Of a stretch of 38,281 nt of DNA, positions 1 through 31,563 are shown piece by piece. The stretch comes from a virus: UHGV virus genome UHGV-0173928; one strand, given 5' to 3'. Position 1 is the first letter of the stretch; each line of letters begins with the position of its first letter. The notes under the pieces are model-generated. The model saw nothing but the letters and a program-made list of their open reading frames with translations, made no database searches and had not been told where the DNA came from. The position numbers and the translations under genes are program-made.

Positions 1-40
1 GGAGCACCTCAAAAACACCATCATACACTAAATCAGTAAG

Positions 41-475
41 TTGGCAGCATCACCGGTTCTTGCCGGGCGCACCGATGAAGAGAAACAGGCCGACGCTGAT
101 CGGATAAACCTGGCCCTTGGCAACATCACGGAGGAAGAGATTGCCGCCAGAAACGAGAAACAAGAAGAGTTATCATCAATACAGGGTGATGCCACCAGCA
201 TAGCTCAGTCTCTTGGTCTGAATTATCGCGTATCCACCGCCGACCTGAAGATGATGTACGCACCAAAATTCGCCGCTGGCGAGGTATTTGGGCTTCAGGA
301 AGCCTCAGGCATGAAAGGCGTTCTTTTCCGTGCGAAAGACGCAATCAAGGCGAAATTCGGCGCTCGCTGGCTGCCAGCGAAGGCGAAGAACAGCGATTTC
401 CCGGGTAACTGGTGGATTATCGAGACAAAACACAACGTGGCGGACGTTCTGGCCGTCATCCAACAATACGCATAA
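41..475 (+). CDS. hypothetical protein (TTG start in ORF track; true start uncertain)
   Basis: Six-frame ORF of 144 codons; in-frame stop at 29-31 shows it is not a truncated upstream gene; no motif recognised; GC resembles the backbone. Confidence 0.3.
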   Translation: MAASPVLAGRTDEEKQADADRINLALGNITEEEIAARNEKQEELSSIQGDATSIAQSLGLNYRVSTADLKMMYAPKFAAGEVFGLQEASGMKGVLFRAKDAIKAKFGARWLPAKAKNSDFPGNWWIIETKHNVADVLAVIQQYA

Positions 476-508
476 CAGGAGCGCCCGGTTCGCCGGGCGT
501 CGCATAAT

Positions 509-949
509 ATGGCCACACTATCTGATACAATAAAACCGAATAAAACATATCTTGAGGCGGTACTCCGTACAGCGTTGTTAGGAAAGACAGAAGACGAATA
601 CGTTGATTTCTTCCTGTCAGGGCTACGCGGGCGATTACTGAAAAATCCCCGCCTGTACCGCAGCTATGGTCCATACTGGCCGGAAATTAAAAAATTATTA
701 CTGGAGCGCGGTTATGGTAATTTCGGTCGTCTCGTTGACCGTGACGTTCGCAAAATTTACCGTTATGACCGCCCGGCGCTAACACTCATAGCCGCGACGC
801 TCTACAGCCAGGAGCGTTTTGATAATGGTCAGATATACTCAGCCTGGCATTTACTGCCAGTGCCTGAAGAGGTTGACGACCAGGACTATGAGTTTGAGTC
901 TTACGATTTGGAAGTTGAAGCCTTAGCACAGGCTGGAGAGAAAACTTGA
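509..949 (+). CDS. hypothetical protein (occupies the position of P1 ulx, upstream of lxc)
   Basis: 146-aa ORF with ATG start; its stop overlaps the start of the next ORF (coupled); assignment by position only. Confidence 0.45.
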   Translation: MATLSDTIKPNKTYLEAVLRTALLGKTEDEYVDFFLSGLRGRLLKNPRLYRSYGPYWPEIKKLLLERGYGNFGRLVDRDVRKIYRYDRPALTLIAATLYSQERFDNGQIYSAWHLLPVPEEVDDQDYEFESYDLEVEALAQAGEKT

Positions 950-1194
950 AAAAGCGATACTACACAGTAAAGCATGGGACGCTACGAGCATTACAAGAGT
1001 TTGCTGACAAGCATAACGTTGAGGTGCGCAGGGAAGGGGGAAGTAAAGCTCTGCGCATGTACCGTCCGGACGGAAAATGGCGGACGGTCGTCGATTTCAA
1101 AACTAACAGCGTTCCCCAGGGCGTCCGCGATCGGGCATTCGAGGAATGGGAGCAGATCATCATAGATAACGCATTGCTCCTGAATGCTGATTAA
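946..1194 (+). CDS. small basic protein (position of P1 lxc/bof C1 co-repressor; identity not confirmed)
   Basis: 82-codon ORF with TTG start overlapping the previous stop; basic composition; no catalytic motif recognised. Confidence 0.35.
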   Translation: MKKRYYTVKHGTLRALQEFADKHNVEVRREGGSKALRMYRPDGKWRTVVDFKTNSVPQGVRDRAFEEWEQIIIDNALLLNAD

Positions 1195-1198
1195 GAAC

Positions 1199-1226
1199 TC
1201 TCCGGCCTAGGGAGATTAGGCCGGAG
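1199..1226. terminator. hairpin between convergent genes, candidate bidirectional terminator
   Basis: ctccggcctaggg agatt aggccggag inverted repeat followed by an A/T-rich tract, lying between the + strand ORF ending at 1194 and the - strand ORF ending at 1236. Confidence 0.45.
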
Positions 1227-1235
1227 ATAAATATA

Positions 1236-2540
1236 CTATATAAACTTAGATATAATATCGTGAATCTGTTGTAGCGGGATTTCTTCCATCTTACTCTTAA
1301 TAAGAGAGCGGTTAGATGCTGTCAGTGAAGGCCATTTTGTTTTCCAGGCTAGATATGCTCGCCATGAGTAGCCTGTTTCGTAAGGTTTATTCATATAAGT
1401 CATTGAGTGTTCAACCGCATGTATGTATTTTTTCTCAAAGTTGGTTCCTTTTACTTCAAATAAACTACCGAAATAAATAAGCCATTTTGCCAGGTGTTCA
1501 TACTGCTCCCATGCGCCAGACTCTTTAGTAAGATCTATTTTTTTATCTATTATATCACAAAAAACATTTAATACCTTTTCATCATTCCAGCTATATCCAG
1601 ATGATGAAATGGAGGAAATGATATGATAAAAAGAATCCTCTAACTTCAAGAACTCTATTTTATACTCTCTTCCGTTTTTTATTACCGATTTGATTGAGTG
1701 CCTCAATTTGTCTTTTATTTTTTTTGCTTCTGGAATTTTCTTGTTAAGTTTTCTAAAGAAATCAGACACCTCTGTTTTATCTATAACCCTAATCCCAAAG
1801 CAGGAAAAATAGTAATCTTTAATAGGTTGCAATAGTTTCCCTCGGGAAATAAGGAAAATATTGGAGGACATTACGTTGTCCCGTGAAAATACCTTATATT
1901 CATTTATAATCGCCTTGAGGTTCGCGTCACTTAGAGAATAGCCAAGAATAACAATAGTGTTTTCATGTAGAACTGTGCTTAGTTTATTTGAAAAGTAAGA
2001 ATTACCATTTATAAATCTGAAATAATCCTCGCTAGTAACAACCATATCTGATGGGGAGTCTATAGAGCCGTGAACATGGTAGACTTTAACCTCACAATTA
2101 TATTTTGGAATTGGCAGGCCGGGGGTGATTGTACACGTTCGATTCTCTCCAGCCAGTTTTTCTGCTAACTTGTCATAATTTGTCGTAATTACTTTAAATG
2201 TGTTTTCTTTGAAAAAGTCTTGAATATATTCAATTGATGGATCAAGTTCGATTGAGGCTATGATTTTCTCAATCTCCTGGTAAATATTTTTCCCCGAAAG
2301 TATAAATTTTAGTGCAATAACCTGAGCAGCCTCTTCAAGGCTAAGGTCTTTTGCTTTTCCATCAGGAAATAATTCCTCTTTGAGTGAGTCACCATCCTTC
2401 AATAAACCGCACAGTTGCTCCAATAAAGATTGCCAACTTGGGGCTTTATCATCAGAAACAGCCTTTGAAAATCCAGTGCCTGTAAGAAAGCACAGCCTAT
2501 GTGTAGCTGCTGCATAGGCAATTTCTATATACTCGCTCAT
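1236..2540 (-). CDS. SIR2-family (SIR2_2/DUF4020-type) putative NAD+-consuming defense protein with unassigned C-terminal domain
   Basis: N-terminal region carries the Rossmann G-x-G motif (CFLTGTGFS), TTNYD and VYHVHGS motifs and a GYSLSD motif, the hallmark set of defense-type SIR2 domains such as ThsA/DSR; gene is visibly AT-rich relative to its flanks. Confidence 0.8.
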   Translation of the reverse strand: MSEYIEIAYAAATHRLCFLTGTGFSKAVSDDKAPSWQSLLEQLCGLLKDGDSLKEELFPDGKAKDLSLEEAAQVIALKFILSGKNIYQEIEKIIASIELDPSIEYIQDFFKENTFKVITTNYDKLAEKLAGENRTCTITPGLPIPKYNCEVKVYHVHGSIDSPSDMVVTSEDYFRFINGNSYFSNKLSTVLHENTIVILGYSLSDANLKAIINEYKVFSRDNVMSSNIFLISRGKLLQPIKDYYFSCFGIRVIDKTEVSDFFRKLNKKIPEAKKIKDKLRHSIKSVIKNGREYKIEFLKLEDSFYHIISSISSSGYSWNDEKVLNVFCDIIDKKIDLTKESGAWEQYEHLAKWLIYFGSLFEVKGTNFEKKYIHAVEHSMTYMNKPYETGYSWRAYLAWKTKWPSLTASNRSLIKSKMEEIPLQQIHDIISKFI

Positions 2541-2596
2541 TACTTACTCCATTTACTTATAGTTCTACGGAGAAGTATACCCTAATGCATTGACGT

Positions 2597-3238
2597 TTAT
2601 AGATAATTTCCTTTTCCTGTTAATACTCCCTTAGGCACCTGTTTTTGTGCCAGCGTTTGGGTTCCGCGAATTATGTTAATCAGAGGGCTTAGTAACGATG
2701 GTTCCTGGCGTGCCTCAACTTCTCCAGCCATTGCCCTGATGTAGTCTGCGCTGGCAACGTTGTTGTATTCCGTCGCAAAGCAACATAGTAACGTCAGAAC
2801 ATGCTCTGTCGTTATTTCGCTCCAGTTGATGTTGAAAAATTCATCGCCTTTTTTGTCGTGTTCGGAATCGAAGATGCTTTGGTGGAGGATGTATTTGCCG
2901 GATTCCTTGCGCGGTAACTTGATTGCTTTCTGGCGTTCCAGCTCCTTATAAATCTGCATTGCCTCAATTAGTACCGGCCTGCCGTTCATGAAGGGATCGC
3001 GCAACCTTACACGCTGGCCAACTCGACCAGTAATAAAGCTGTTTTCCTCTTCCACCAGCACGATAAAACCCTTTTCCTCTTTTTCTCGCAATTCGCGCAG
3101 CAGCTGGAGTTCCATATCGCGACGGCGTTCAGGGTAGCTGGTCCGCTCAGCCATTATTAGCTCATTGTTGATCCATGCAGCAGTCATTGACGCCGGTTTG
3201 CCGACGCTCATCGAAACAACGCATATTTTCTTATCCAT
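2597..3238 (-). CDS. hypothetical protein at the position of P1 mat (particle maturation); ORF extends to a GTG at 3385
   Basis: ORF 2597-3385; internal ATG (MDKKICVV...) at 3236-3238 is the more plausible start; identity by synteny only. Confidence 0.4.
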   Translation of the reverse strand: MDKKICVVSMSVGKPASMTAAWINNELIMAERTSYPERRRDMELQLLRELREKEEKGFIVLVEEENSFITGRVGQRVRLRDPFMNGRPVLIEAMQIYKELERQKAIKLPRKESGKYILHQSIFDSEHDKKGDEFFNINWSEITTEHVLTLLCCFATEYNNVASADYIRAMAGEVEARQEPSLLSPLINIIRGTQTLAQKQVPKGVLTGKGNYL

Positions 3239-3427
3239 AGCGCCCCCTACAAAAAAGAAAAGCCACCAGCGGCGGCTTAGCAATACAACTGAAGGTAGCG
3301 CCCGGTACTCAGACTGTGCCGTCCATGGAATATTTGAAAAGGGATCCATCCGTACCGGGCATGTGATGATTCTGACTGAAGTCACTTGTCAGTTGTCAAT
3401 TATTTCAGATTAAAAATAATATATTTA

Positions 3428-3988
3428 TTAGTGCATGATGTTTGCCATCTCATAGGCGTCAGCCAGCAACTCCATCTCTGACTTGTTCAGCAAGGTGAAT
3501 TCTTTCTTGCCTCCAACCACACCATCGGCATGAACAGGGACCAGCCAGGGGTATTTTTCTCTTACTTCAGCCGGTGCTGCATGCTGGTGGTGCCATCTAC
3601 AAAGGGGCAATTGCTTTTTGTGACAACCCGGCGCGGTACGACCGGAGATATGGTGCAGAGATACCTCTTCAGATATTACTCCATGCATGTAGCAGGCAAT
3701 GCAGGGGAGAGCGCCAAGAGCATTGGCGATGCTCCGTTCCTCCGCTGTCGATGTTCGCCCCTTCAAGCCACGAGATTTTATCTTTACCGCACTTTTCCGC
3801 GTTTTGCTGGCTGGTGGGCGCTCTTTCTGTTTAGCGATACGGCGGACGATAGAATCCCGCATTTTCTGATATTGCGATTCTCGCCAGGCGGGGTCAGCCA
3901 ACTTTTCCCGTTGCCGAGCGATCGCTCGTTCTCTGGCTGCCTTCTGCCACTCGCGGCGCTGTTCAAGTTTTTGTTCGATTGTTTTCAT
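3428..3988 (-). CDS. ref: Ref, HNH-type recombination enhancement function
   Basis: 186 aa matching my recollection of P1 Ref in length and sequence, with Cys/His-rich HNH-like core (CIACY...CHKK...CRWHH) and basic N-terminus; located beside cre as in P1. Confidence 0.85.
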   Translation of the reverse strand: MKTIEQKLEQRREWQKAARERAIARQREKLADPAWRESQYQKMRDSIVRRIAKQKERPPASKTRKSAVKIKSRGLKGRTSTAEERSIANALGALPCIACYMHGVISEEVSLHHISGRTAPGCHKKQLPLCRWHHQHAAPAEVREKYPWLVPVHADGVVGGKKEFTLLNKSEMELLADAYEMANIMH

Positions 3989-3993
3989 ATGGC

Positions 3994-4021
3994 AAAAAAA
4001 AAAGGCGGCCTAATGGCCGCC
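3994..4021 (-). terminator. intrinsic-terminator-like hairpin plus U-tract immediately upstream of the ref start codon
   Basis: On the minus strand ggcggcc-atta-ggccgcc is followed by ten U; the U-tract ends 6 nt before the ref ATG. Confidence 0.45.
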
Positions 4022-4088
4022 AATGATGTCAAGGAGTTAAGTAATGGCAACGTCTTCGTAGTTGACAAAAACTGCGGCTTAATTATAG

Positions 4089-4105
4089 CAATCAATTAGA
4101 GCAAT
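4089..4105. promoter_or_regulatory. C1-operator-like 17-mer upstream of ref
   Basis: caatcaattagagcaat matches the reverse complement of the P1 C1 operator consensus ATTGCTCTAATAAATTT at 14/17 positions. Confidence 0.5.
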
Positions 4106-4236
4106 GGTAGATATTTTGTTAATCGCGAATCACATTTTTTCACTTCAGTACCTGTGTGCTATACTCCTTCTTGATTGATTGGATGCGGAATACAAACCCG
4201 CTCTTTTGTGCAGCCTGGCTCCTTGCCAGGCTTTTT

Positions 4237-4548
4237 TTATTTCATCATGGAAGCTGTTAACGCTTTGGATCTTGCTGAACTGATTGAAAGGGCATTGTTT
4301 ACCTTACCCAGGAGTTCGCCAAATTCCACCATCACTCTAGTAAGCCCGCGCCGCGCTTCCTCCTCCGTTGCATTCATCACAAAATGTTCAGCACTCCGCA
4401 TGCTTTTAACGGGGAACGCAACAGATATCGAGTCGATATCAGGCATCCTATCGCTCAACTTTACGGTGACAATGACAGATGGTGACTGAATTTGAGAGCT
4501 TACAGACAGCACCACATATTTTCCGTCTATTTTGAAATCCTTCCGCAT
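4237..4548 (-). CDS. hypothetical protein (position of P1 cra, cre-associated)
   Basis: 103-aa ORF between cre and ref; a C1-operator-like site (4565-4581) lies just upstream; identity by position only. Confidence 0.4.
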   Translation of the reverse strand: MRKDFKIDGKYVVLSVSSQIQSPSVIVTVKLSDRMPDIDSISVAFPVKSMRSAEHFVMNATEEEARRGLTRVMVEFGELLGKVNNALSISSARSKALTASMMK

Positions 4549-4598
4549 GCGTCACCATAAATATCAAATAATTAGAGCAATCAAGCGCAAATGAACGG

Positions 4599-5630
4599 CT
4601 AATCGCCATCTTCCAGCAGGCGCACCATTGCCCCCGTTTCACTATCCAGGTTACGGATATAGTTCATGACAATATTTACGTTGGTCCAGCCACCAGCTTG
4701 CATGATCTCCGGTATTGAAACTCCGGCGCGGGCCATATCTCGCGCGGCTCCGACACGGGCACTGTGTCCAGACCAGGCCAGGTATCTCTGACCAGAGTCA
4801 TCCTTAGCGCCGTAAATCAATCGATGAGTTGCTTCAAAAATCCCTTCCAGGGCGCGAGTTGATAGCTGGCTGGTGGCAGATGGCGCGGCAACACCATTTT
4901 TTCTGACACGGCAAAACAAGTAGTTATTCGGATCATCAGCCACACCAGAGACAGAAATCCATCGCTCAACCAGTTTAGTTACCCCCAGGCTAAGTGCCTT
5001 CTCTACACCAGCGGTGCTAACCAGCGTTTTCGTTCTGCCAATATGGATTAACATTCTCCCACCGTCAGTACGTGAGATATCTTTAACCCTGATCCTGGCA
5101 ATTTCTGCTATACGTAGCAGGGTATTATAAGCAATCCCAAGAAATGCCAGATTACGTATATCCTGGCAGCGATCGCTATTTTCCATGAGTGAACGAACCT
5201 GGTCGAAATCAGTGCGTTCGAACGCCAGTGCCTGTTTTGCACGTTCACCGGCATCAACGTTTTCTTTTCGGATCCGTCGCATGACCAGTGAAACAGCATT
5301 ACTGTCACTTGGTCGTGGCAGCCCGGACCGACGATGAAGCATGTTTAGCTGGCCCAAATGTTGCTGGATAGTTTTTACTGCCAGACCGCGCGCCTGAAGA
5401 TATAGAAGATAATCGCGAACATCTTCAGGTTCTGCGGGAAACCATTTCCGGTTATTCAACTTGCACCATGCCGCCCACGATCGGCAAACGGACAGAAGCA
5501 TTTTCCAGGTATGCTCAGAAAACGCCTGGCGATCCCTGAACATGTCCATCAGGTTCTTGCGAACCTCATCACTCGTTGCATCGACCGGTAATGCAGGCAA
5601 ATTTTGGTGTACGGTCAGTAAATTGGACAT
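4599..5630 (-). CDS. cre: Cre site-specific tyrosine recombinase
   Basis: 343-aa protein recognisable as P1 Cre (MSNLLTVHQNLPALPVDATSDEVRKNLMDMFRDRQAFSEHTWKMLLSVCRSWAAWCKLNNRKWFPAEPEDVRDYL...), with loxP about 420 bp upstream. Confidence 0.98.
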   Translation of the reverse strand: MSNLLTVHQNLPALPVDATSDEVRKNLMDMFRDRQAFSEHTWKMLLSVCRSWAAWCKLNNRKWFPAEPEDVRDYLLYLQARGLAVKTIQQHLGQLNMLHRRSGLPRPSDSNAVSLVMRRIRKENVDAGERAKQALAFERTDFDQVRSLMENSDRCQDIRNLAFLGIAYNTLLRIAEIARIRVKDISRTDGGRMLIHIGRTKTLVSTAGVEKALSLGVTKLVERWISVSGVADDPNNYLFCRVRKNGVAAPSATSQLSTRALEGIFEATHRLIYGAKDDSGQRYLAWSGHSARVGAARDMARAGVSIPEIMQAGGWTNVNIVMNYIRNLDSETGAMVRLLEDGD

Positions 5631-5637
5631 TTAACAC

Positions 5638-5859
5638 TCAGATAATGGTTTTAAGTAAAGTGTACAGGATCGGCTCTGCCTTTACCTGTTTATGGTTCTC
5701 GTCATAGAAACGCCAGCGACCGCGCGTGCGTTCTATTTTCTCTTCACCGCGCGATAATGACAGTTGACAACTATCACGATCAAACCCTTTTGCCCGCCAG
5801 TAACCACGGTTTTTCTCAAGCTCAAGATGAGTGGACACTTTAGCAGCTGAATATCCCAT
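5638..5859 (-). CDS. small basic ORF between loxP and cre (possibly coding)
   Basis: 73 codons, ATG preceded by GAGGTG Shine-Dalgarno at appropriate spacing; stop lies 8 nt before the cre ATG. Confidence 0.3.
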   Translation of the reverse strand: MGYSAAKVSTHLELEKNRGYWRAKGFDRDSCQLSLSRGEEKIERTRGRWRFYDENHKQVKAEPILYTLLKTII

Positions 5860-5956
5860 TTTTCACCTCTGATTGATTAGGTGGTGCTAAGTGCGCTACG
5901 CGAAATCTGGAGCACTAACACTGCCAACATTTCGCAGATTTTACGTAGCGCAACCT

Positions 5957-5978
5957 TGATCAAATGATCAAGTGATCA
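5957..5978. promoter_or_regulatory. cluster of three GATC (Dam) sites in the cre upstream region
   Basis: tgatcaaatgatcaagtgatca: three GATC within 20 bp, consistent with methylation-sensitive cre promoter control described for P1. Confidence 0.5.
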
Positions 5979-6049
5979 CTATTTGACCTGATAAGGCATT
6001 GAACTGTATGGATTTACAGGTAAATTGATCATGTTCAATAACCCTTAAG

Positions 6050-6083
6050 ATAACTTCGTATAATGTATGCTATACGAAGTTAT
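6050..6083 (+). other. loxP recombination site
   Basis: Exact ATAACTTCGTATA-ATGTATGC-TATACGAAGTTAT: two 13-bp inverted repeats around the canonical 8-bp spacer. Confidence 0.97.
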
Positions 6084-13458: not shown

Positions 13459-14043
13459 ATGCCTAATCGCATTCCTCTCGATCCTGTATTGCCCAAAAAT
13501 TTTGACTGCACTCCTAACGAGAAACGCTCTAAAGCTCAGCTGGACGCCTGGTGGGACCATCCATATGGGGTTACACAACCTGACGGGAAAATTGTAGTTT
13601 ATTGTCTGAATGGTGGGGCGTGGGACCGTCCATCCGTGCTTTGTTTGGCAGATAACTATGATGAAGCCTGTGAACTTGCCGAAAGACAGCAGGCAAGCTG
13701 GGTAAAAACACGGTCTGAACCGACATTCATGTTTTCAAAAGAACCGCCATTTATACTGGCGAGGATGCCGCAGCGACCGGATCATCAACAAGAAATTGTT
13801 GCTGAATTTTCCTCTAGGGATGAGATGAATCTCTTCTCATTAAAGCAGGAAGAAAGGGATCGCGTCGAAGTGTCTCCAACTCTCGACCACAACCGGATGA
13901 ACCTGGCCCAACTCGCCTGGTACAGCAAAGAATTAGAGATGTCTATTGCCCGACTTGAAAACGAAAAAGCCGCTATCCAAGCCCAGCATGAAGTAGTTCT
14001 GAACCGGATTAGAGAAATGCAAAACGATAACAGGGGATTTTGA
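13459..14043 (+). CDS. hypothetical protein, likely LexA-regulated (possibly P1 lxr-like), coiled-coil C-terminus
   Basis: 194-aa ORF with ATG and AGGA-type RBS, divergent from humD across the LexA box; no catalytic motif recognised. Confidence 0.6.
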   Translation: MPNRIPLDPVLPKNFDCTPNEKRSKAQLDAWWDHPYGVTQPDGKIVVYCLNGGAWDRPSVLCLADNYDEACELAERQQASWVKTRSEPTFMFSKEPPFILARMPQRPDHQQEIVAEFSSRDEMNLFSLKQEERDRVEVSPTLDHNRMNLAQLAWYSKELEMSIARLENEKAAIQAQHEVVLNRIREMQNDNRGF

Positions 14044-14406
14044 ATGGCTAAAATCGAGTACCATCGCGATCGCGGTAATTACCTGGAAATATACGATCAT
14101 GAATCTCTTAACGATATCAACGATGCGTTATATGAATACTGTGAAAAAACGAGCATCACAGATGCACCTGATGCATTTGTCGAGCTACCGGTATATCTCC
14201 GCGACATCTATGCAATACGAACACCGCCCGTATCGGTGATCCACATTGGCTATGTCCGCCTGTCCATCGAAGAAGATGAAGATCGTTATATCGTGCGCCA
14301 CTATACATTGGACAGAAAAGAGCTTCCCAATGAATGGAACATGAGTAATTTCTACAACGGTGAATATGGCTTAAAACCCGCTAAGAATGGCGCGGGCATT
14401 GCGTAA
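14044..14406 (+). CDS. hypothetical acidic protein, second gene of the LexA-box cassette
   Basis: 120-aa ORF whose ATG overlaps the upstream stop (TGAATG coupling); no motif recognised. Confidence 0.55.
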   Translation: MAKIEYHRDRGNYLEIYDHESLNDINDALYEYCEKTSITDAPDAFVELPVYLRDIYAIRTPPVSVIHIGYVRLSIEEDEDRYIVRHYTLDRKELPNEWNMSNFYNGEYGLKPAKNGAGIA

Positions 14407-14417
14407 TAGCCTAACAA

Positions 14418-14669
14418 CTATTCTGTTTTCTGATATGCCGGATCGTTCCCTTTTGGCAACTGGAGGCTTAACTGCCGATAGTGCCGTAACCGTTCCATGA
14501 AATAGGTGCGCAGCTTCTCTGGTTGCTCGCGGGCTACCTGTTCAGCTATGACAGGTATGTTCAATCGCTCTTTGTACGCCACACCGCTGGCAGCCAGATC
14601 AACGTTAACCTTATCCCGTTCTTCCTGACTTTTAGCTGCAATATTCCAATCGTGCATATCAAATCCCAT
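14418..14669 (-). CDS. hot: Hot, homolog of DNA polymerase III theta subunit (HolE)
   Basis: 83-aa protein with ...[43 protein letters not shown]..., clearly similar to E. coli theta. Confidence 0.85.
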
Positions 14670-15680: not shown

Positions 15681-16321
15681 ACTTCACCCTCGCTTGTATC
15701 GCCAGCATCCACCAGCGGCAATAAAGCCCTGGCCATCTTATGAACCAATAGTGCATCAATAATGCCAAGCGTATGCCCCGGCTTAATGTTTAATGCCGCC
15801 TCAAGGTGACACCTTTCCAAGCCACTTTTCTCGGCTTGTTTATGATGATCTGGCGTAATAACGTCGCCCAAAACACGGCTAATTCTTTCTCGTAATTGCT
15901 GGGTGCCCGCACACTTGATCGCTGTATCGTGGAGACGGTTAACCAGTTCGCGATAAACATGCGGTTTAATGCGGATACGTTCACCGGTGACGCCCTTTCC
16001 TGGCCCTGGCACCGAACTATCCGGAATATCCGGATAGTTGCCAGCCTCGTAAGCTACCCGCAGCCAGTGCATGAATGTTTCAGTGGACACACAACCACAG
16101 TCCACATCGATTTTCCCGCGTTGCTGTTCCAGCCACTGCTCAAAATTCAATCTACACGTATTACTTTCATGTTGCTCTTTTTGTCTCAAGGCCAGCATCT
16201 GCTGGGCTATTTCCAATACTTCATCTGCCGTATATCCAGCACCGTGACCATACATTTCGATACGGGAAATAATCTCTGATATACGCTCTTCAGTGATTCT
16301 GGTCATTTCTTTTTGCGCCAT
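15677..16321 (-). CDS. hypothetical protein
   Basis: 214-aa ORF in the same-strand gene train. Confidence 0.5.
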   Translation of the reverse strand: MAQKEMTRITEERISEIISRIEMYGHGAGYTADEVLEIAQQMLALRQKEQHESNTCRLNFEQWLEQQRGKIDVDCGCVSTETFMHWLRVAYEAGNYPDIPDSSVPGPGKGVTGERIRIKPHVYRELVNRLHDTAIKCAGTQQLRERISRVLGDVITPDHHKQAEKSGLERCHLEAALNIKPGHTLGIIDALLVHKMARALLPLVDAGDTSEGEV

Positions 16322-16677
16322 TTCTTTTCACATTCCTTAGTCCATTTTTCAATGTTCATTTTGGCAATATCAGTCATTCCATCACCTAAGAAATACTTTT
16401 TCCGGTATGTCTTGCACTTAAACCACACTACAACAGCCCCCAGCCAGAAAATAAAAGGCCATACAGCAATACCAACGACAGCCGCGATAAAGCCCAATAG
16501 CCATAAATGAAGCTCTCCAACTTCTGTTTCCGGCAATATTCTTAAAGAATTAAACAGCAGGCTGAACGAATGGTCGTATGCATTGGCAGTATAAGACATG
16601 CAATCCATATAATTAAAGTCATAGCCTGCGGCTGCCGCCCATAATGGGCGGTCAAGAAAATGTTTTAGTGTCATCAT
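16303..16677 (-). CDS. predicted membrane protein with lysine-rich C-terminus
   Basis: 124 aa with hydrophobic stretch LWLLGFIAAVVGIAVWPFIFWLGAVVVWF. Confidence 0.5.
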   Translation of the reverse strand: MMTLKHFLDRPLWAAAAGYDFNYMDCMSYTANAYDHSFSLLFNSLRILPETEVGELHLWLLGFIAAVVGIAVWPFIFWLGAVVVWFKCKTYRKKYFLGDGMTDIAKMNIEKWTKECEKKWRKKK

Positions 16678-16683
16678 ATAAAT

Positions 16684-17073
16684 TTAAGGTTCAGACCAGT
16701 TATCTTCAATAGCAATGCTTAATCTTTGTAGCCATTCTGCTAATTTCAGCATTGCTTCTCTTTCGCTTAAACCACGAGGAAAATCATCAAGCGAAATTGT
16801 TGGCTTGAAGCCCCCGTAATTATCCATTTCAACTGTCAGATTTTGTTCCAGCACGGTATTTCTTACGCGGCTATTGTGCCGGAGCAAATATACTGAGCGT
16901 GATTTATTGGTTTTGTGGTCTAGCTTATATTCGGTAAGTATCATCTGGCTTTTGCCATGATTATTACCTCTCCACATACTTACCTCACTTAATAAAACAA
17001 CTCCATGCGTAGTTGATGATTTTTTCCCACGTAATATAAATCTGCACTCCGGCAGTAAAACCAAAGCCAACAA
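16684..17073 (-). CDS. hypothetical protein
   Basis: 129-aa ORF; start uncertain. Confidence 0.4.
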   Translation of the reverse strand: MLALVLLPECRFILRGKKSSTTHGVVLLSEVSMWRGNNHGKSQMILTEYKLDHKTNKSRSVYLLRHNSRVRNTVLEQNLTVEMDNYGGFKPTISLDDFPRGLSEREAMLKLAEWLQRLSIAIEDNWSEP

Positions 17074-17371
17074 TTGCTGAAAAAATCAAAACATTTACTT
17101 TTGACATTATAAATTTTCTCTCGGTGTCGTAGGTGATAGCACCATAATTGATAATTTAGTGAGTTAGCAGTTCCATTTTTTGGATGATTTCCGCATGAGC
17201 ATCATCGTTATCAACACTTAACTCGTTTATCGTCCCATCAATATCTACTATGACGATGTACGGACGTTCCTGGTGTGCGTGTTTATTGAAAATACTCAAA
17301 TGCCCTCCTCATTGGACGAAAAAAATGCTGGTGGGAGCACTCCACCAGCATTAAAAGTGACACTGTAACTA

Positions 17372-28211: not shown

Positions 28212-29096
28212 ATGCCGGAAGAAAGTAAAGGCTTCCTTAGCGTTGAAGAAGTTGCAGGAAATACAGGAGAAATCCACAGCCTGAAGCCCAATAACAACAG
28301 CACTATACAACCCATCGCTTTGTTGCGCTTAGGTGTGTTTGTGCCAACCTTAAAATCTACCAATGTGGCGCTACGTCGCGGATCGTCAGTTACAACAAAC
28401 ACAACGAACGCAACTGAAGAACTATCAAGCCTCAAAATTGTTGAGCAGGAAGGCTATGAGGGAATTGAAATTCATGGTCCACGCCTGGATATGGATACTG
28501 ATTTTAAGGTGTGGGTGGGCATAACCTCCGCGTTGTTTGACTACGCACCTGATGATGACGGCATAATCACCCTGCCATTCTCCGAGTTTGCCGATCGATG
28601 CGGCTATCCACGTAAGCGCCTTTCAAAGGCGTTCCGTAAAAGTATTGATGACTCTCTGACACGCATTCAGCAGACAGTTGTCAAATTCCGCTTCCCGGCG
28701 GCAAAAGGTCATCTCAATAACATTAACGTCAACTTGTTGGCATATAGCAGCCTGAATACCGAGCTTGATGTTATCGAGATCCAGCCGCAGAAACAGCTAT
28801 CTGAACTTTACTATGTTGACTATAAGCGAATCCTGAAGCTGAAGATGCTGGATAAACTAGGGCGCAAAGAGACGGCCAAGGTACTGTATACATTCTTTGA
28901 GGCTCTACCCGCCAACCCGGCACCTGTCAGCATTGAGCGCCTTAGAGCGAGGCTTAATCTCAAATCATCCGTTAGCGTGCAAAATAGCGTTATCAGAAAA
29001 GCCATGAAAGATTTGGAAGCTATTGAATATCTTAAATTTTCAGAGATAAAAAACGGCAGGAAAATCGGCTTCCAGATCCATAAGCGCAATCCATAA
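28212..29096 (+). CDS. repA: RepA replication initiator (P1 R-replicon / RepFIB-type family)
   Basis: Conserved GPRLDMDTDFK block and overall RepA-like organisation; flanked by iteron arrays on both sides; ORF track starts at 28176. Confidence 0.88.
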   Translation: MPEESKGFLSVEEVAGNTGEIHSLKPNNNSTIQPIALLRLGVFVPTLKSTNVALRRGSSVTTNTTNATEELSSLKIVEQEGYEGIEIHGPRLDMDTDFKVWVGITSALFDYAPDDDGIITLPFSEFADRCGYPRKRLSKAFRKSIDDSLTRIQQTVVKFRFPAAKGHLNNINVNLLAYSSLNTELDVIEIQPQKQLSELYYVDYKRILKLKMLDKLGRKETAKVLYTFFEALPANPAPVSIERLRARLNLKSSVSVQNSVIRKAMKDLEAIEYLKFSEIKNGRKIGFQIHKRNP

Positions 29097-29098
29097 TA

Positions 29099-29354
29099 TT
29101 GACTATATGCGATAGCGAGAAGTTGACTATAGGCGACATTCGTTGACGCTGGTGGATTTTTGCTGGCGTCAATATTCTGCAAGTCGCTATTGAGATGGCT
29201 TTTAGGGGCATTTCATCGCGTATAGTCAACGTTTCTCCCGACAATATCTTACATAGTCGATCTTTGGTGGAGTTAAATCGACTACAGTCAACTTTTGACT
29301 GTAGTCACATCGCGCATAGTCAACTATTCACATTAACCTTCGCGCATAGTCAAC
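29099..29354. repeat. incA-like copy-control iteron array in both orientations
   Basis: About nine TTGACTATAxGCGA-type repeats or their reverse complements (e.g. 29099, 29123, 29213, 29277, 29295, 29310, 29341). Confidence 0.7.
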
Positions 29355-29388
29355 ATTTGCTCGGTTCTCATCAAGCAGTGGTATTGAT

Positions 29389-30198
29389 ATGCAAGAAGAG
29401 AAACAACACTACCTCTACGTTCTGGTGCCAGAGAACGGAGATACTTTTAAAATCGGCATTTCATGTGGTCCATTGGCACGGTTTAAAGGGCTACAAGTGA
29501 GTCCCGATTTTGCGCTTTCACGGGTCTATCGTGGTACGCGTTTGGCAATGGTTAATCTTGAGCGGGCTTTACACGCAACCTTTTTCCCCTGGAATGCGCC
29601 GTGGGAGAAAAGCGCCGGTGGCGGGCATACTGAATGGTTTACACGAGAGTGTCTTGATAAGGTTTTGGCTCATATCGAATATCTAAATGATATGTGGGGA
29701 GGGATTCTCGAGCGCATTAAGTCGAATGATTTACTTCAGCGTCCAGTAGATGCTGCTTGCTCTTTCGAAAAAGAGCTGGATGTTACTTCTATCGTGACTT
29801 TCAAAGATGACGCAGGAATGAGGGACGTGGCTTATGTCTCCATATCTGGCTATGAACCGGACGCGATCCGCGCTCAATGTGAATTGCTGAAAGCAATGTT
29901 TATGCTTCGGACTAAATATCCCTGGGATACAGGGCGGGTGTGCTTCCCTATGGAAGAGTTAACCGCCACCATTGATTCCCAGCTTTACCACGATAATCCA
30001 GAGAAGTTTTTTAGCCTTTTAGCCGGTAATGGGCTTAACTGTGTGTCCGGGCTGGGGCGAAGTAGAATCCAACATGCCTCGCTCTTCGGTCCCTTCTTTT
30101 ACGATCGACACGGGTACTTTGAGGCTGAACTTCCGGCGCTTACGCGTGCTATAGATACTATCGATTTCGAACGATTATTCGCTGCTCTTAGCAAATAA
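29389..30198 (+). CDS. T5orf172 / GIY-YIG-like domain protein with unassigned C-terminal half
   Basis: N-terminus YLYVLVPENGDTFKIGIS...R...L...GHTEWF fits the T5orf172 (MUG113) pattern; followed by a clean terminator. Confidence 0.6.
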   Translation: MQEEKQHYLYVLVPENGDTFKIGISCGPLARFKGLQVSPDFALSRVYRGTRLAMVNLERALHATFFPWNAPWEKSAGGGHTEWFTRECLDKVLAHIEYLNDMWGGILERIKSNDLLQRPVDAACSFEKELDVTSIVTFKDDAGMRDVAYVSISGYEPDAIRAQCELLKAMFMLRTKYPWDTGRVCFPMEELTATIDSQLYHDNPEKFFSLLAGNGLNCVSGLGRSRIQHASLFGPFFYDRHGYFEAELPALTRAIDTIDFERLFAALSK

Positions 30199-30205
30199 CA
30201 CTGAT

Positions 30206-30227
30206 GCCCCTGAACGGGGCTTTTTTG
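30206..30227 (+). terminator. rho-independent terminator
   Basis: gcccc-tgaac-ggggc hairpin followed by TTTTTT. Confidence 0.6.
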
Positions 30228-30366
30228 TGCCCTCCTTGTAACTCTCAATCGTGCAAAATGAACCAAACATGCAGAGAATGCTATGTACAAGCATCTACGC
30301 ATACATTATTATTTTATGCAGCATTTTTAATTAAATTCAAAAATACAGCATAAAGGATGACTTTCG

Positions 30367-31563
30367 ATGAGTGATTCCAGCCAGCTTCACAAGGTTGCTC
30401 AAAGAGCAAATAGAATGCTCAATGTTCTGACTGAACAAGTACAGTTGCAAAAGGATGAGCTACACGCGAACGAGTTTTACCAAGTCTATGCGAAAGCGGC
30501 ACTGGCAAAATTGCCTCTACTGACTCGTGCGAACGTTGACTATGCCGTAAGTGAAATGGAAGAAAAGGGTTATGTTTTCGATAAACGCCCTGCTGGCTCT
30601 TCAATGAAATATGCGATGTCAATTCAGAACATCATTGACATATATGAACATCGCGGAGTGCCAAAATACCGGGATCGCTACAGCGAAGCGTATGTGATTT
30701 TCATCTCCAATCTTAAAGGCGGTGTGTCAAAAACTGTATCGACGGTTTCTCTGGCGCATGCAATGCGTGCTCATCCTCATCTTCTGATGGAAGATTTAAG
30801 GATTCTGGTTATTGACCTTGATCCGCAATCTTCAGCAACGATGTTTTTAAGCCATAAACACTCTATTGGTATCGTAAACGCAACATCTGCACAGGCTATG
30901 TTGCAGAATGTAAGCCGTGAAGAGCTGTTAGAGGAGTTTATTGTTCCTTCTGTTGTACCTGGGGTTGACGTTATGCCTGCGTCGATTGACGATGCCTTTA
31001 TTGCATCCGATTGGAGAGAGCTGTGCAATGAGCATCTACCGGGTCAGAACATCCATGCAGTCCTGAAAGAAAATGTGATTGATAAGCTGAAGAGCGATTA
31101 TGACTTTATCCTCGTTGATAGTGGTCCTCACCTTGACGCCTTCCTGAAAAATGCTTTGGCCTCGGCCAATATACTGTTTACACCTCTGCCGCCTGCAACG
31201 GTTGATTTCCACTCATCGCTTAAATACGTTGCCCGCCTTCCTGAGTTGGTGAAACTCATTTCGGATGAAGGCTGCGAGTGTCAGCTTGCAACTAACATTG
31301 GTTTTATGTCCAAGTTGAGTAACAAGGCAGACCATAAGTATTGCCATAGCCTGGCTAAAGAAGTGTTCGGTGGGGATATGCTTGATGTTGTCCTCCCTCG
31401 CCTTGACGGTTTTGAACGCTGCGGCGAGTCTTTTGACACTGTTATTTCAGCTAACCCGGCAACGTATGTTGGTAGTGCTGATGCATTGAAGAACGCGCGA
31501 ATTGCTGCGGAAGATTTTGCTAAAGCAGTTTTTGACCGTATTGAATTTATCAGATCTAACTGA
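30367..31563 (+). CDS. parA: ParA partition ATPase
   Basis: 398 aa; Walker A KGGVSKT; recognised as the P1 ParA family. Confidence 0.95.
   Translation: MSDSSQLHKVAQRANRMLNVLTEQVQLQKDELHANEFYQVYAKAALAKLPLLTRANVDYAVSEMEEKGYVFDKRPAGSSMKYAMSIQNIIDIYEHRGVPKYRDRYSEAYVIFISNLKGGVSKTVSTVSLAHAMRAHPHLLMEDLRILVIDLDPQSSATMFLSHKHSIGIVNATSAQAMLQNVSREELLEEFIVPSVVPGVDVMPASIDDAFIASDWRELCNEHLPGQNIHAVLKENVIDKLKSDYDFILVDSGPHLDAFLKNALASANILFTPLPPATVDFHSSLKYVARLPELVKLISDEGCECQLATNIGFMSKLSNKADHKYCHSLAKEVFGGDMLDVVLPRLDGFERCGESFDTVISANPATYVGSADALKNARIAAEDFAKAVFDRIEFIRSN

Follow-up and report, generated by a model that had tools for sequence, protein, structure and literature searches.

Why does a P1-like phage-plasmid carry a nuclease gene between its replication iterons and its partition operon, in an interval where classical P1 has none? 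We addressed this question in UHGV virus genome UHGV-0173928, a stretch of 38,281 nucleotides that we call the window. Here a 269-amino-acid (aa) open reading frame (ORF) of the T5orf172/GIY-YIG nuclease family lies after the downstream iterons and before Ppar/parA, which follows at 30367. The first-pass annotation of this DNA had located the ORF correctly, as a discrete unit, and had suggested that it may be an accessory insertion into the P1 incA-parA interval. We find instead that a whole 2.25-kb block has been exchanged, and the best explanation is that the gene belongs to an exchangeable plasmid-replicon cassette of P1-like phage-plasmids, as a built-in passenger on its 3' edge.

A replicon cassette replaces its P1 counterpart

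The features that define the cassette in the window are as follows.

28015..30264, no strand: exchangeable p0111-type replicon cassette, which replaces P1 incC iterons-repA-incA (blastn against P1)
28030..28129, + strand: five origin iterons of the TTGACTATACGCG type, at ~21-bp spacing
28212..29096, + strand: repA of the p0111 type, with Rep3 WH1 and WH2 (Pfam Rep3_N/Rep3_C)
29099..29353, no strand: downstream (incA-equivalent) iteron array, with iterons in origin orientation at 29099 and 29123 and inverted iterons at 29217, 29279, 29311 and 29341
29389..30198, + strand: T5orf172/GIY-YIG nuclease-family gene, 269 aa (ORF list, Pfam, PHROG and structure model)
30206..30227, + strand: intrinsic terminator that closes the cassette (GCCCC-TGAAC-GGGGC, then TTTTTT)
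30265..31563, + strand: Ppar promoter/operator and parA, common to P1, where the backbone begins on the right of the cassette

In blastn comparisons, homology to P1 stops at 28014 and restarts at 30265, with flanks that are 96.5% (left) and 99.3% (right) identical. Between these points, 2,250 bp comprising five origin iterons, repA, six downstream iterons, the nuclease ORF and the terminator stand in for 1,491 bp of P1. Because the whole block replaces the IncY replicon of P1, the iterons upstream of the gene, previously taken for P1 incA, are the equivalent array of the p0111-type replicon. The RepA encoded by the block is 42% identical to P1 RepA; ParA is 99.7% identical between the window and P1, and ParA, ParB and the capsid protein together range from 99.7 to 100%.

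When a 2.3-kb query around the nuclease gene was compared with classical P1 (NC_005856), the match was confined to the last ~130 bp. In the annotation of that genome, incA iteron 1 and Ppar are separated by ~190 bp without a gene, which bears out the earlier suspicion that canonical P1 lacks the gene. A tblastn search for a relic of a lost T5orf172 gene in the P1 incA-Ppar spacer returned nothing better than E~0.1, and nothing in the spacer itself. That P1 once had the gene and lost it cannot be shown, since no remnant was found there. The same block as in the window occurs in RCS47, SJ46, JL22, phi456 and others, where the gene is 98-100% identical.

Within the cassette, repA has an alternative upstream TTG start at 28176. 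Its coding region also contains an iteron-like TTGACTATAAGCG at 28816-28828, and the equivalent site is conserved in a diverged relative, L003 (7613-7625); this could be an internal RepA binding site.

The gene and the cassette occur together

In the plasmid database PLSDB, 402 plasmids carry the nuclease gene, 401 with ≥90% identity, and ~395 have p0111-type RepA at ≥95% identity. Both junction halves, with the gene in between, are found in ~397 records. The complete gene-less P1 IncY junction is present in 144 PLSDB plasmids, and IncY plasmids with P7-type par likewise have no gene. The gene is thus never found without such a cassette, nor the cassette without the gene, and classical P1/P7 IncY is the exception in being without it.

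The family itself is small. We combined a word index over 5.8 billion clusters with an exhaustive HMMER search over 1.84 billion representatives and recovered only three other full-length variants: P0004 (44% identical), P0009 (27%, from Salmonella enterica) and P0011 (from a faecal metagenome). A further ~150 proteins match the N-terminal ~100 residues only. The P0009-type variant is absent from PLSDB. All three variants lie in P1-like elements (L003, L004/L005 and L006) in the order repA, iterons, T5orf172 gene, parA, parB. The iterons are of three types: TTGACTATACGCG in the window and L003, TGTGTGCTGGAGG in L004, as in P1 IncY, and CTACTGCATGCTA in L006. The nuclease variant co-varies with the replicon type. 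L003, L004/L005 and L006 are sister P1-like phage-plasmid lineages whose capsid protein is ~80% identical to that of P1, and L006 combines the third iteron type with ParA and ParB of P7 length.

One pair of these elements repeats the comparison between the window and P1. The backbones of L003 and L004 are near-identical (ParA 99.7%, capsid 99.5%) and their cassettes differ: L003 has a p0111-type RepA (84% identical to that of the window) with a window-like nuclease, while L004 has an IncY-type RepA (83% identical to that of P1) with P0009. Homology between the two stops at the first origin iteron and restarts 63-84 bp past the nuclease stop codon. Because these cassette edges are the same as those of the window/P1 pair, we regard the nuclease gene as the terminal element of the exchangeable cassette. 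Sequence comparison indicates that the IncY-type and p0111-type RepAs are both older than the split from the E. coli P1 lineage.

A predicted two-domain endonuclease

The ORF starts at the ATG at 29389, the earliest start downstream of an in-frame stop, and its product begins with MQEEKQHYLYVLVPENGDTFKIGIS and includes the motif GGGHTEWF. From sequence and structure models, we infer a DNA endonuclease with two domains that belongs to the T5orf172 branch of the GIY-YIG superfamily, its activity being predicted.

29410..29703, + strand: N-terminal catalytic-type domain, residues 8-105
29770..30195, + strand: orphan C-terminal domain, residues 128-269, acidic (isoelectric point, pI, ~5.1)

The family assignment made earlier from the sequence pattern holds. 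Residues 8-85 score 27.5 bits with Pfam T5orf172 (PF10544), whose cut-off is 20, and MUG113 stays below its threshold; the other three variants score 25.1-28 bits with T5orf172. An end-to-end match links the protein to PHROG 2876, whose function is unknown (E=1.6e-194), and phrog_681, labelled 'endonuclease', matches weakly. NCBIfam models gave no match to the 269-aa protein, and a sequence-profile search of the PDB gave a marginal GIY-YIG match only (1ywl at E=0.15). The hallmark residues Y10, K21, G23, R31, E58, H62, G79, T81, E82, W83 and F84 are all retained, and these positions are 93-100% conserved among 149 T5orf172 relatives. Based on motif and secondary-structure order, R31 and E82 are the probable equivalents of the GIY-YIG catalytic Arg and Glu. 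The nuclease Odn is inactivated by E180A, a mutation of the corresponding Glu (PMC8263062).

An AlphaFold2 model built from four sequences reached a mean pLDDT of 71.8 (69.7-71.8 across five models), and we used it in place of a model from two sequences (pLDDT 51). The N-terminal domain is predicted to adopt a GIY-YIG alpha/beta fold resembling SLX1, and among the many viral T5orf172 proteins that its modelled structure matches are Hef-like homing endonucleases and ICP1 ORF88 (Odn).

The C-terminal half had been called unassigned, and at the level of sequence families this stands: we found no Pfam (residues 106-269), NCBIfam, PADLOC or PDB sequence match, and no sequence relatives beyond the four variants. 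In the structure model, residues 157-231 follow the winged-helix order H-S-H-H-S-S, and nearly all of the best PDB matches found with Foldseek are Rep3-family WH1 domains (MSBI1.176 with E=0.11 and TMt 0.41, RepE54, and pPS10 RepA with TMt 0.40). The resemblance to Rep WH1 agrees between two methods, each of them weak, and its placement on the C-terminal half is inferred. The closest outgroup, P0012, is a T5orf172 domain with a MarR-like winged helix, from a phage rich in homing endonuclease genes.

Rapid evolution and decay

The nuclease gene evolves much faster than the genes beside it. The nucleases of the window and L003 have 44% identity, with 64% in the N-terminal and 32% in the C-terminal domain, against 84% for RepA and 89% for ParA. 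Each variant pair has 62-64% identity in the N-terminal domain. In the E. coli clade, repA and parA differ by 0-1 nonsynonymous and 4-33 synonymous changes, which gives a ratio of nonsynonymous to synonymous rates (dN/dS) of about 0, whereas the nuclease gene differs by 1-13 of each and has a dN/dS of 0.17-0.97. Among 59 plasmid copies sampled at even spacing, at least 6 (~10%) are disrupted by stops, a frameshift, split ORFs or truncations; the annotation of a seventh record, H75, is split in the same way, and this record was left out of the count. Both repA and parA are intact beside the disrupted copies, except in H88, where arsR and a permease gene lie upstream of the truncated gene in place of repA. 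Because disrupted copies sit beside intact repA and parA, the gene is dispensable for maintenance, and it is weakly constrained in the short term. This agrees with the earlier expectation that it has no housekeeping role.

Two rearranged alleles have lost the nuclease domain. In NZ_CP019262 (L019) only residues 99-269 of the nuclease remain, beside arsR and a permease gene, and P0005 (197 aa, on a 108-kb E. coli plasmid contig) is a chimera whose residues 79-197 correspond to nuclease residues ~105-224 behind an unrelated 78-aa N-terminus. We rejected the truncated clusters P0002/P0003 as evidence of decay; P0003 begins at a contig end. An apparent deficit of diversity in the cassette relative to parA, which would resemble a sweep, was seen only against one E. 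albertii plasmid and is not general.

Could the gene be a decaying relic, a former homing endonuclease or moron trapped in the cassette, with little or no function, and kept by linkage to repA and by slow erosion? The upper end of the dN/dS range, the values above 1 for the C-terminal domain in some pairs, and the disrupted copies are what such a history would leave. Classical P1 and P7-type IncY plasmids thrive without the gene, and its Shine-Dalgarno sequence is weak and no independent promoter is predicted. However, ~90% of copies have no disruption, and where counts are adequate, pairwise dN/dS is mostly 0.2-0.5. An open frame of 269-296 aa is preserved in all four variants although their RepA types are only 41-48% identical, so that frame, length and every hallmark and catalytic residue persist across very deep divergence. 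No plasmid shows a clean deletion of the gene. Taken together, the intact copies, the kept frames and catalytic residues, and the lack of clean deletions point to long-term purifying selection, and we consider a relic unlikely.

Fast evolution and sporadic loss are also typical of defence genes, and the gene could be a defence or exclusion moron, that is, a stand-alone nuclease that shields the lysogen, through abortive infection or by cutting DNA directly, from unrelated incoming phages or plasmids. Nuclease domains are common defence effectors, phage-plasmids carry defence cargo, and one relative, P0013, has chromosomal neighbours that include Mrr_cat and WYL genes. Nevertheless, a scan of PADLOC-DB v2 gave 0 families at E≤1. 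Members of the nuclease family occur in a single slot of one kind of element and do not move among defence islands, the gene lies outside the eight cargo-bearing variable regions of P1-like elements (PMC9603915), and its variant tracks the replicon type. Given this, a defence role seems quite unlikely to us.

Expression and a possible role in the replicon

The last iteron ends at 29353 (29341-29353) and the ATG at 29389 lies 35 bp beyond it; in all four variants this distance is about 22-35 bp. We found no predicted + strand sigma-70 promoter between repA and the nuclease ATG, no predicted terminator between repA and the nuclease ORF, and no C1 operator near the gene, the closest being at 25665. 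The description of the gene as a discrete unit with its own terminator is therefore half right: the terminator, a GC-rich hairpin with six T residues downstream of the stop codon, is there, and is why the locus was given an end at 30227, but no promoter of its own is predicted. Foreign base composition of the gene was ruled out (GC content 47.5%, against 46.9% for the window). One further structure lies upstream.

29141..29173, + strand: stable hairpin (-22.8 kcal/mol, ~14-bp stem) between the direct and the inverted downstream iterons

This hairpin is not followed by a T-run, so it is not a canonical terminator; it might serve as an attenuator or a protein site. Since there is no room for a promoter of its own and the Shine-Dalgarno sequence is weak, the nuclease is probably expressed by read-through. 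Low-level read-through from the RepA-autoregulated repA promoter is the most economical route on sequence grounds, possibly modulated by iteron-bound RepA.

Such an arrangement raises the possibility that the protein is a replicon accessory or regulator. Its WH1-like domain would bind RepA, the adjacent iterons or Ppar and modulate handcuffing, copy number or par expression, and the nuclease fold would serve DNA binding or nicking, not conflict. The linkage to the repA-iteron array is constant, with the ATG close behind the last iteron in 4/4 variants, and the gene is probably co-transcribed with repA. The C-terminal domain is similar to WH1, the dimerisation domain of Rep proteins, and shares its acidity with the cognate RepA WH1 half (pI 4.9), and CapR offers a precedent as a domesticated T5orf172-related regulator. 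Yet the gene is broken in ~10% of copies in otherwise intact replicons, and IncY P1 replicates and partitions without it. Constraint is far weaker than on RepA or ParA. The C-terminal domains of the window and L003 are 32% identical where RepA is 84% identical and the iterons are the same, a poor fit to a co-adapted partner, and the catalytic residues are fully conserved. We think a regulatory role improbable.

A possible homing-like or competitive nuclease

We tentatively favour a cassette-linked, homing-like or competitive endonuclease that cuts related P1-like genomes carrying another cassette, a reading that we hold to be quite possible but short of probable. It is favoured because the gene joins an intact catalytic domain to a second domain that diversifies fast and may have an initiator-like fold, sits at the edge of an exchanged replication module and decays in a minority of copies. 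We also count in its favour the evolutionary pattern of the gene, which looks conflict-like or selfish at the sequence level (44% identity against 84% for RepA and 89% for ParA, raised dN/dS, ~10% of copies disrupted).

In the mechanism that we propose, the nuclease would be made at a low level from transcripts that start at the repA promoter and read through the iteron array. The N-terminal domain would cut DNA via Arg31 and Glu82, and the fast-evolving, Rep-WH1-like C-terminal domain would pick the target, either by binding DNA or by docking on iteron-bound Rep protein. The target would be a co-resident related P1-like genome with a different cassette, for example IncY P1. Cutting would eliminate the rival, or else recombinational repair from the nuclease-bearing genome would convert the rival's replicon cassette, a homing-like co-conversion of the iterons-repA-iterons-nuclease block. 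The gene would not be required for replication or partition.

It is tempting to speculate further that this is a 'replicon-warfare' nuclease, an independently arisen, plasmid-borne analogue of Odn whose WH1-like domain aims at the rival's iteron origin or incA. Targeting would occur by direct DNA binding or by heterodimerising with the rival's iteron-bound RepA, and the rival would be destroyed or its cassette converted. We put little confidence in this more specific version, which as it stands is unlikely. If true, it would explain how P1-like backbones that are 99% identical come to have swapped iterons-repA-nuclease cassettes, and phage-plasmids would gain their first described mechanism of nuclease-based incompatibility or replicon drive.

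Several observations weigh against a homing-like or competitive nuclease. A synthetic junction from which the nuclease gene was exactly deleted matched 0 of 72,556 PLSDB plasmids, so there is no empty cassette allele, and the gene is present in 0 IncY P1/P7 plasmids in the same database. Because neither an empty cassette nor an IncY P1/P7 carrier exists there, independent homing of the gene is not observed. Common ancestry of the cassettes could be enough to explain why the gene sits at the boundary. The iterons of the window and L003 are the same, and still their C-terminal domains are 32% identical; specificity therefore does not track an element's own iterons. The WH1 match is weak, and the C-terminal half is only tentatively, from the model, a Rep-WH1-like winged-helix domain. 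It has no sequence similarity to P1-like RepA (hhalign of the family profile against the RepA profile, probability 0.1%), and on this result Odn-style mimicry of RepA was rejected at the sequence level. No CxxC occurs in any of the four variants, and the CapR/DUF723/DUF4397 Zn-finger DNA-binding modules, which are present in 87% of T5orf172 homing endonuclease genes, are absent. Lastly, the C-terminal domain is acidic (pI ~5) in all variants, and basic residues are missing from its putative recognition helix, which is atypical for a DNA reader.

Acidic C-terminal parts also occur in 42% of T5orf172 relatives; with these and the acidic RepA WH1 half in view, charge is not decisive as a test of DNA binding. 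The acidic domain would fit a role in protein contact no less than one in reading DNA.

Relation to known systems

Three groups of characterised T5orf172 proteins offer a comparison. The first is the phage homing endonucleases (ICP1, T5-like; PMC10448857), whose genes sit at boundaries of genetic exchange and flank 'islands' of essential genes. The window gene resembles them in its catalytic family with all hallmark residues, in its combination of a nuclease with a variable specificity region, in adjoining essential replication genes at the edge of an exchanged block, and in its occasional decayed or frameshifted copies. It differs in having no Zn-finger modules and no gene-minus allele of the same locus, in residing on a low-copy plasmid prophage and not in a lytic phage, and in having its nuclease domain at the N-terminus; any homing by it is putative.

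The second is Odn (ICP1 Gp88), the origin-directed nuclease, in which a RepA-like domain is fused to the nuclease and which cuts the iteron origin of a rival (PMC8263062). Both proteins have a T5orf172 nuclease, joined in Odn to an initiator-like winged helix and in the window protein to a domain that weakly resembles one, and in both variation is linked to replicon or iteron type. However, the RepA_N of Odn is 42% identical to the RepA of its target, whereas the window protein has no detectable similarity to any P1-like RepA. The order of the domains is reversed, and the window gene lies inside a replicon cassette and not in the anti-satellite locus of a lytic phage. The third group consists of domesticated DNA binders of the CapR type. 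More distant members of the superfamily (SLX1/HIGLE, I-TevI and UvrC) are 11-17% identical in sequence; the window protein has no SLX1 RING/PHD domain or SLX4 partner, and the T5orf172 sub-family has signature motifs of its own (K-I-G, E..LH and G.TEWF), unlike SLX1/HIGLE and other GIY-YIG proteins.

The gene itself is already known. RefSeq lists it in RCS47, SJ46 and JL22 as 'GIY-YIG nuclease family protein', and the JL22 paper reports it as gp57, of unknown function (PMC9603915); these are the same gene as in the window. The literature searched holds no published function, domain or comparative analysis of it. What is new here is the cassette and its edges, the confinement of the family to one slot beside three types of iteron, the difference in evolutionary rate from the neighbouring genes, and the tentative Rep-WH1-like C-terminal half.

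P1-like phage-plasmids have two main replicon types, IncY and p0111, and are important vehicles of extended-spectrum beta-lactamase (ESBL) and mcr resistance genes. A nuclease that always comes last in non-IncY cassettes offers a candidate mechanism for replicon turnover or competition, through cassette conversion or elimination of rivals. If this is true, the paradigm of phage homing endonucleases and Odn would extend to plasmid replicons. If the gene is inert, it is still a diagnostic marker of the p0111-type cassette, and annotations need correcting. Phage phi456 (OR339795) labels the nuclease ORF 'terminase small subunit', MOB-suite typing in PLSDB calls the p0111-type replicon 'IncHI1B', and RefSeq phage records call RepA 'replication helicase'.

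Other differences from P1

Elsewhere in the window, ~10.25 kb are absent at 22816-22827 relative to P1 (NC_005856 68,009-78,258), and the alignments overlap by 12 bp at this junction. The absent stretch comprises the dmt 3' end, ban, three tRNAs, tciABC, dbn and the tail/baseplate genes 5, 6, 24, 7, 25 and 26. The junction is spanned by 0 of 18 matching phage records, and the source element may be a defective P1-like plasmid. Three segments of the window, 1-6066, 14027-14426 and 16053-17227, have no blastn match to P1 44,801-94,800. The first may correspond to P1 DNA outside the compared range, and the other two look like small variable-region replacements.

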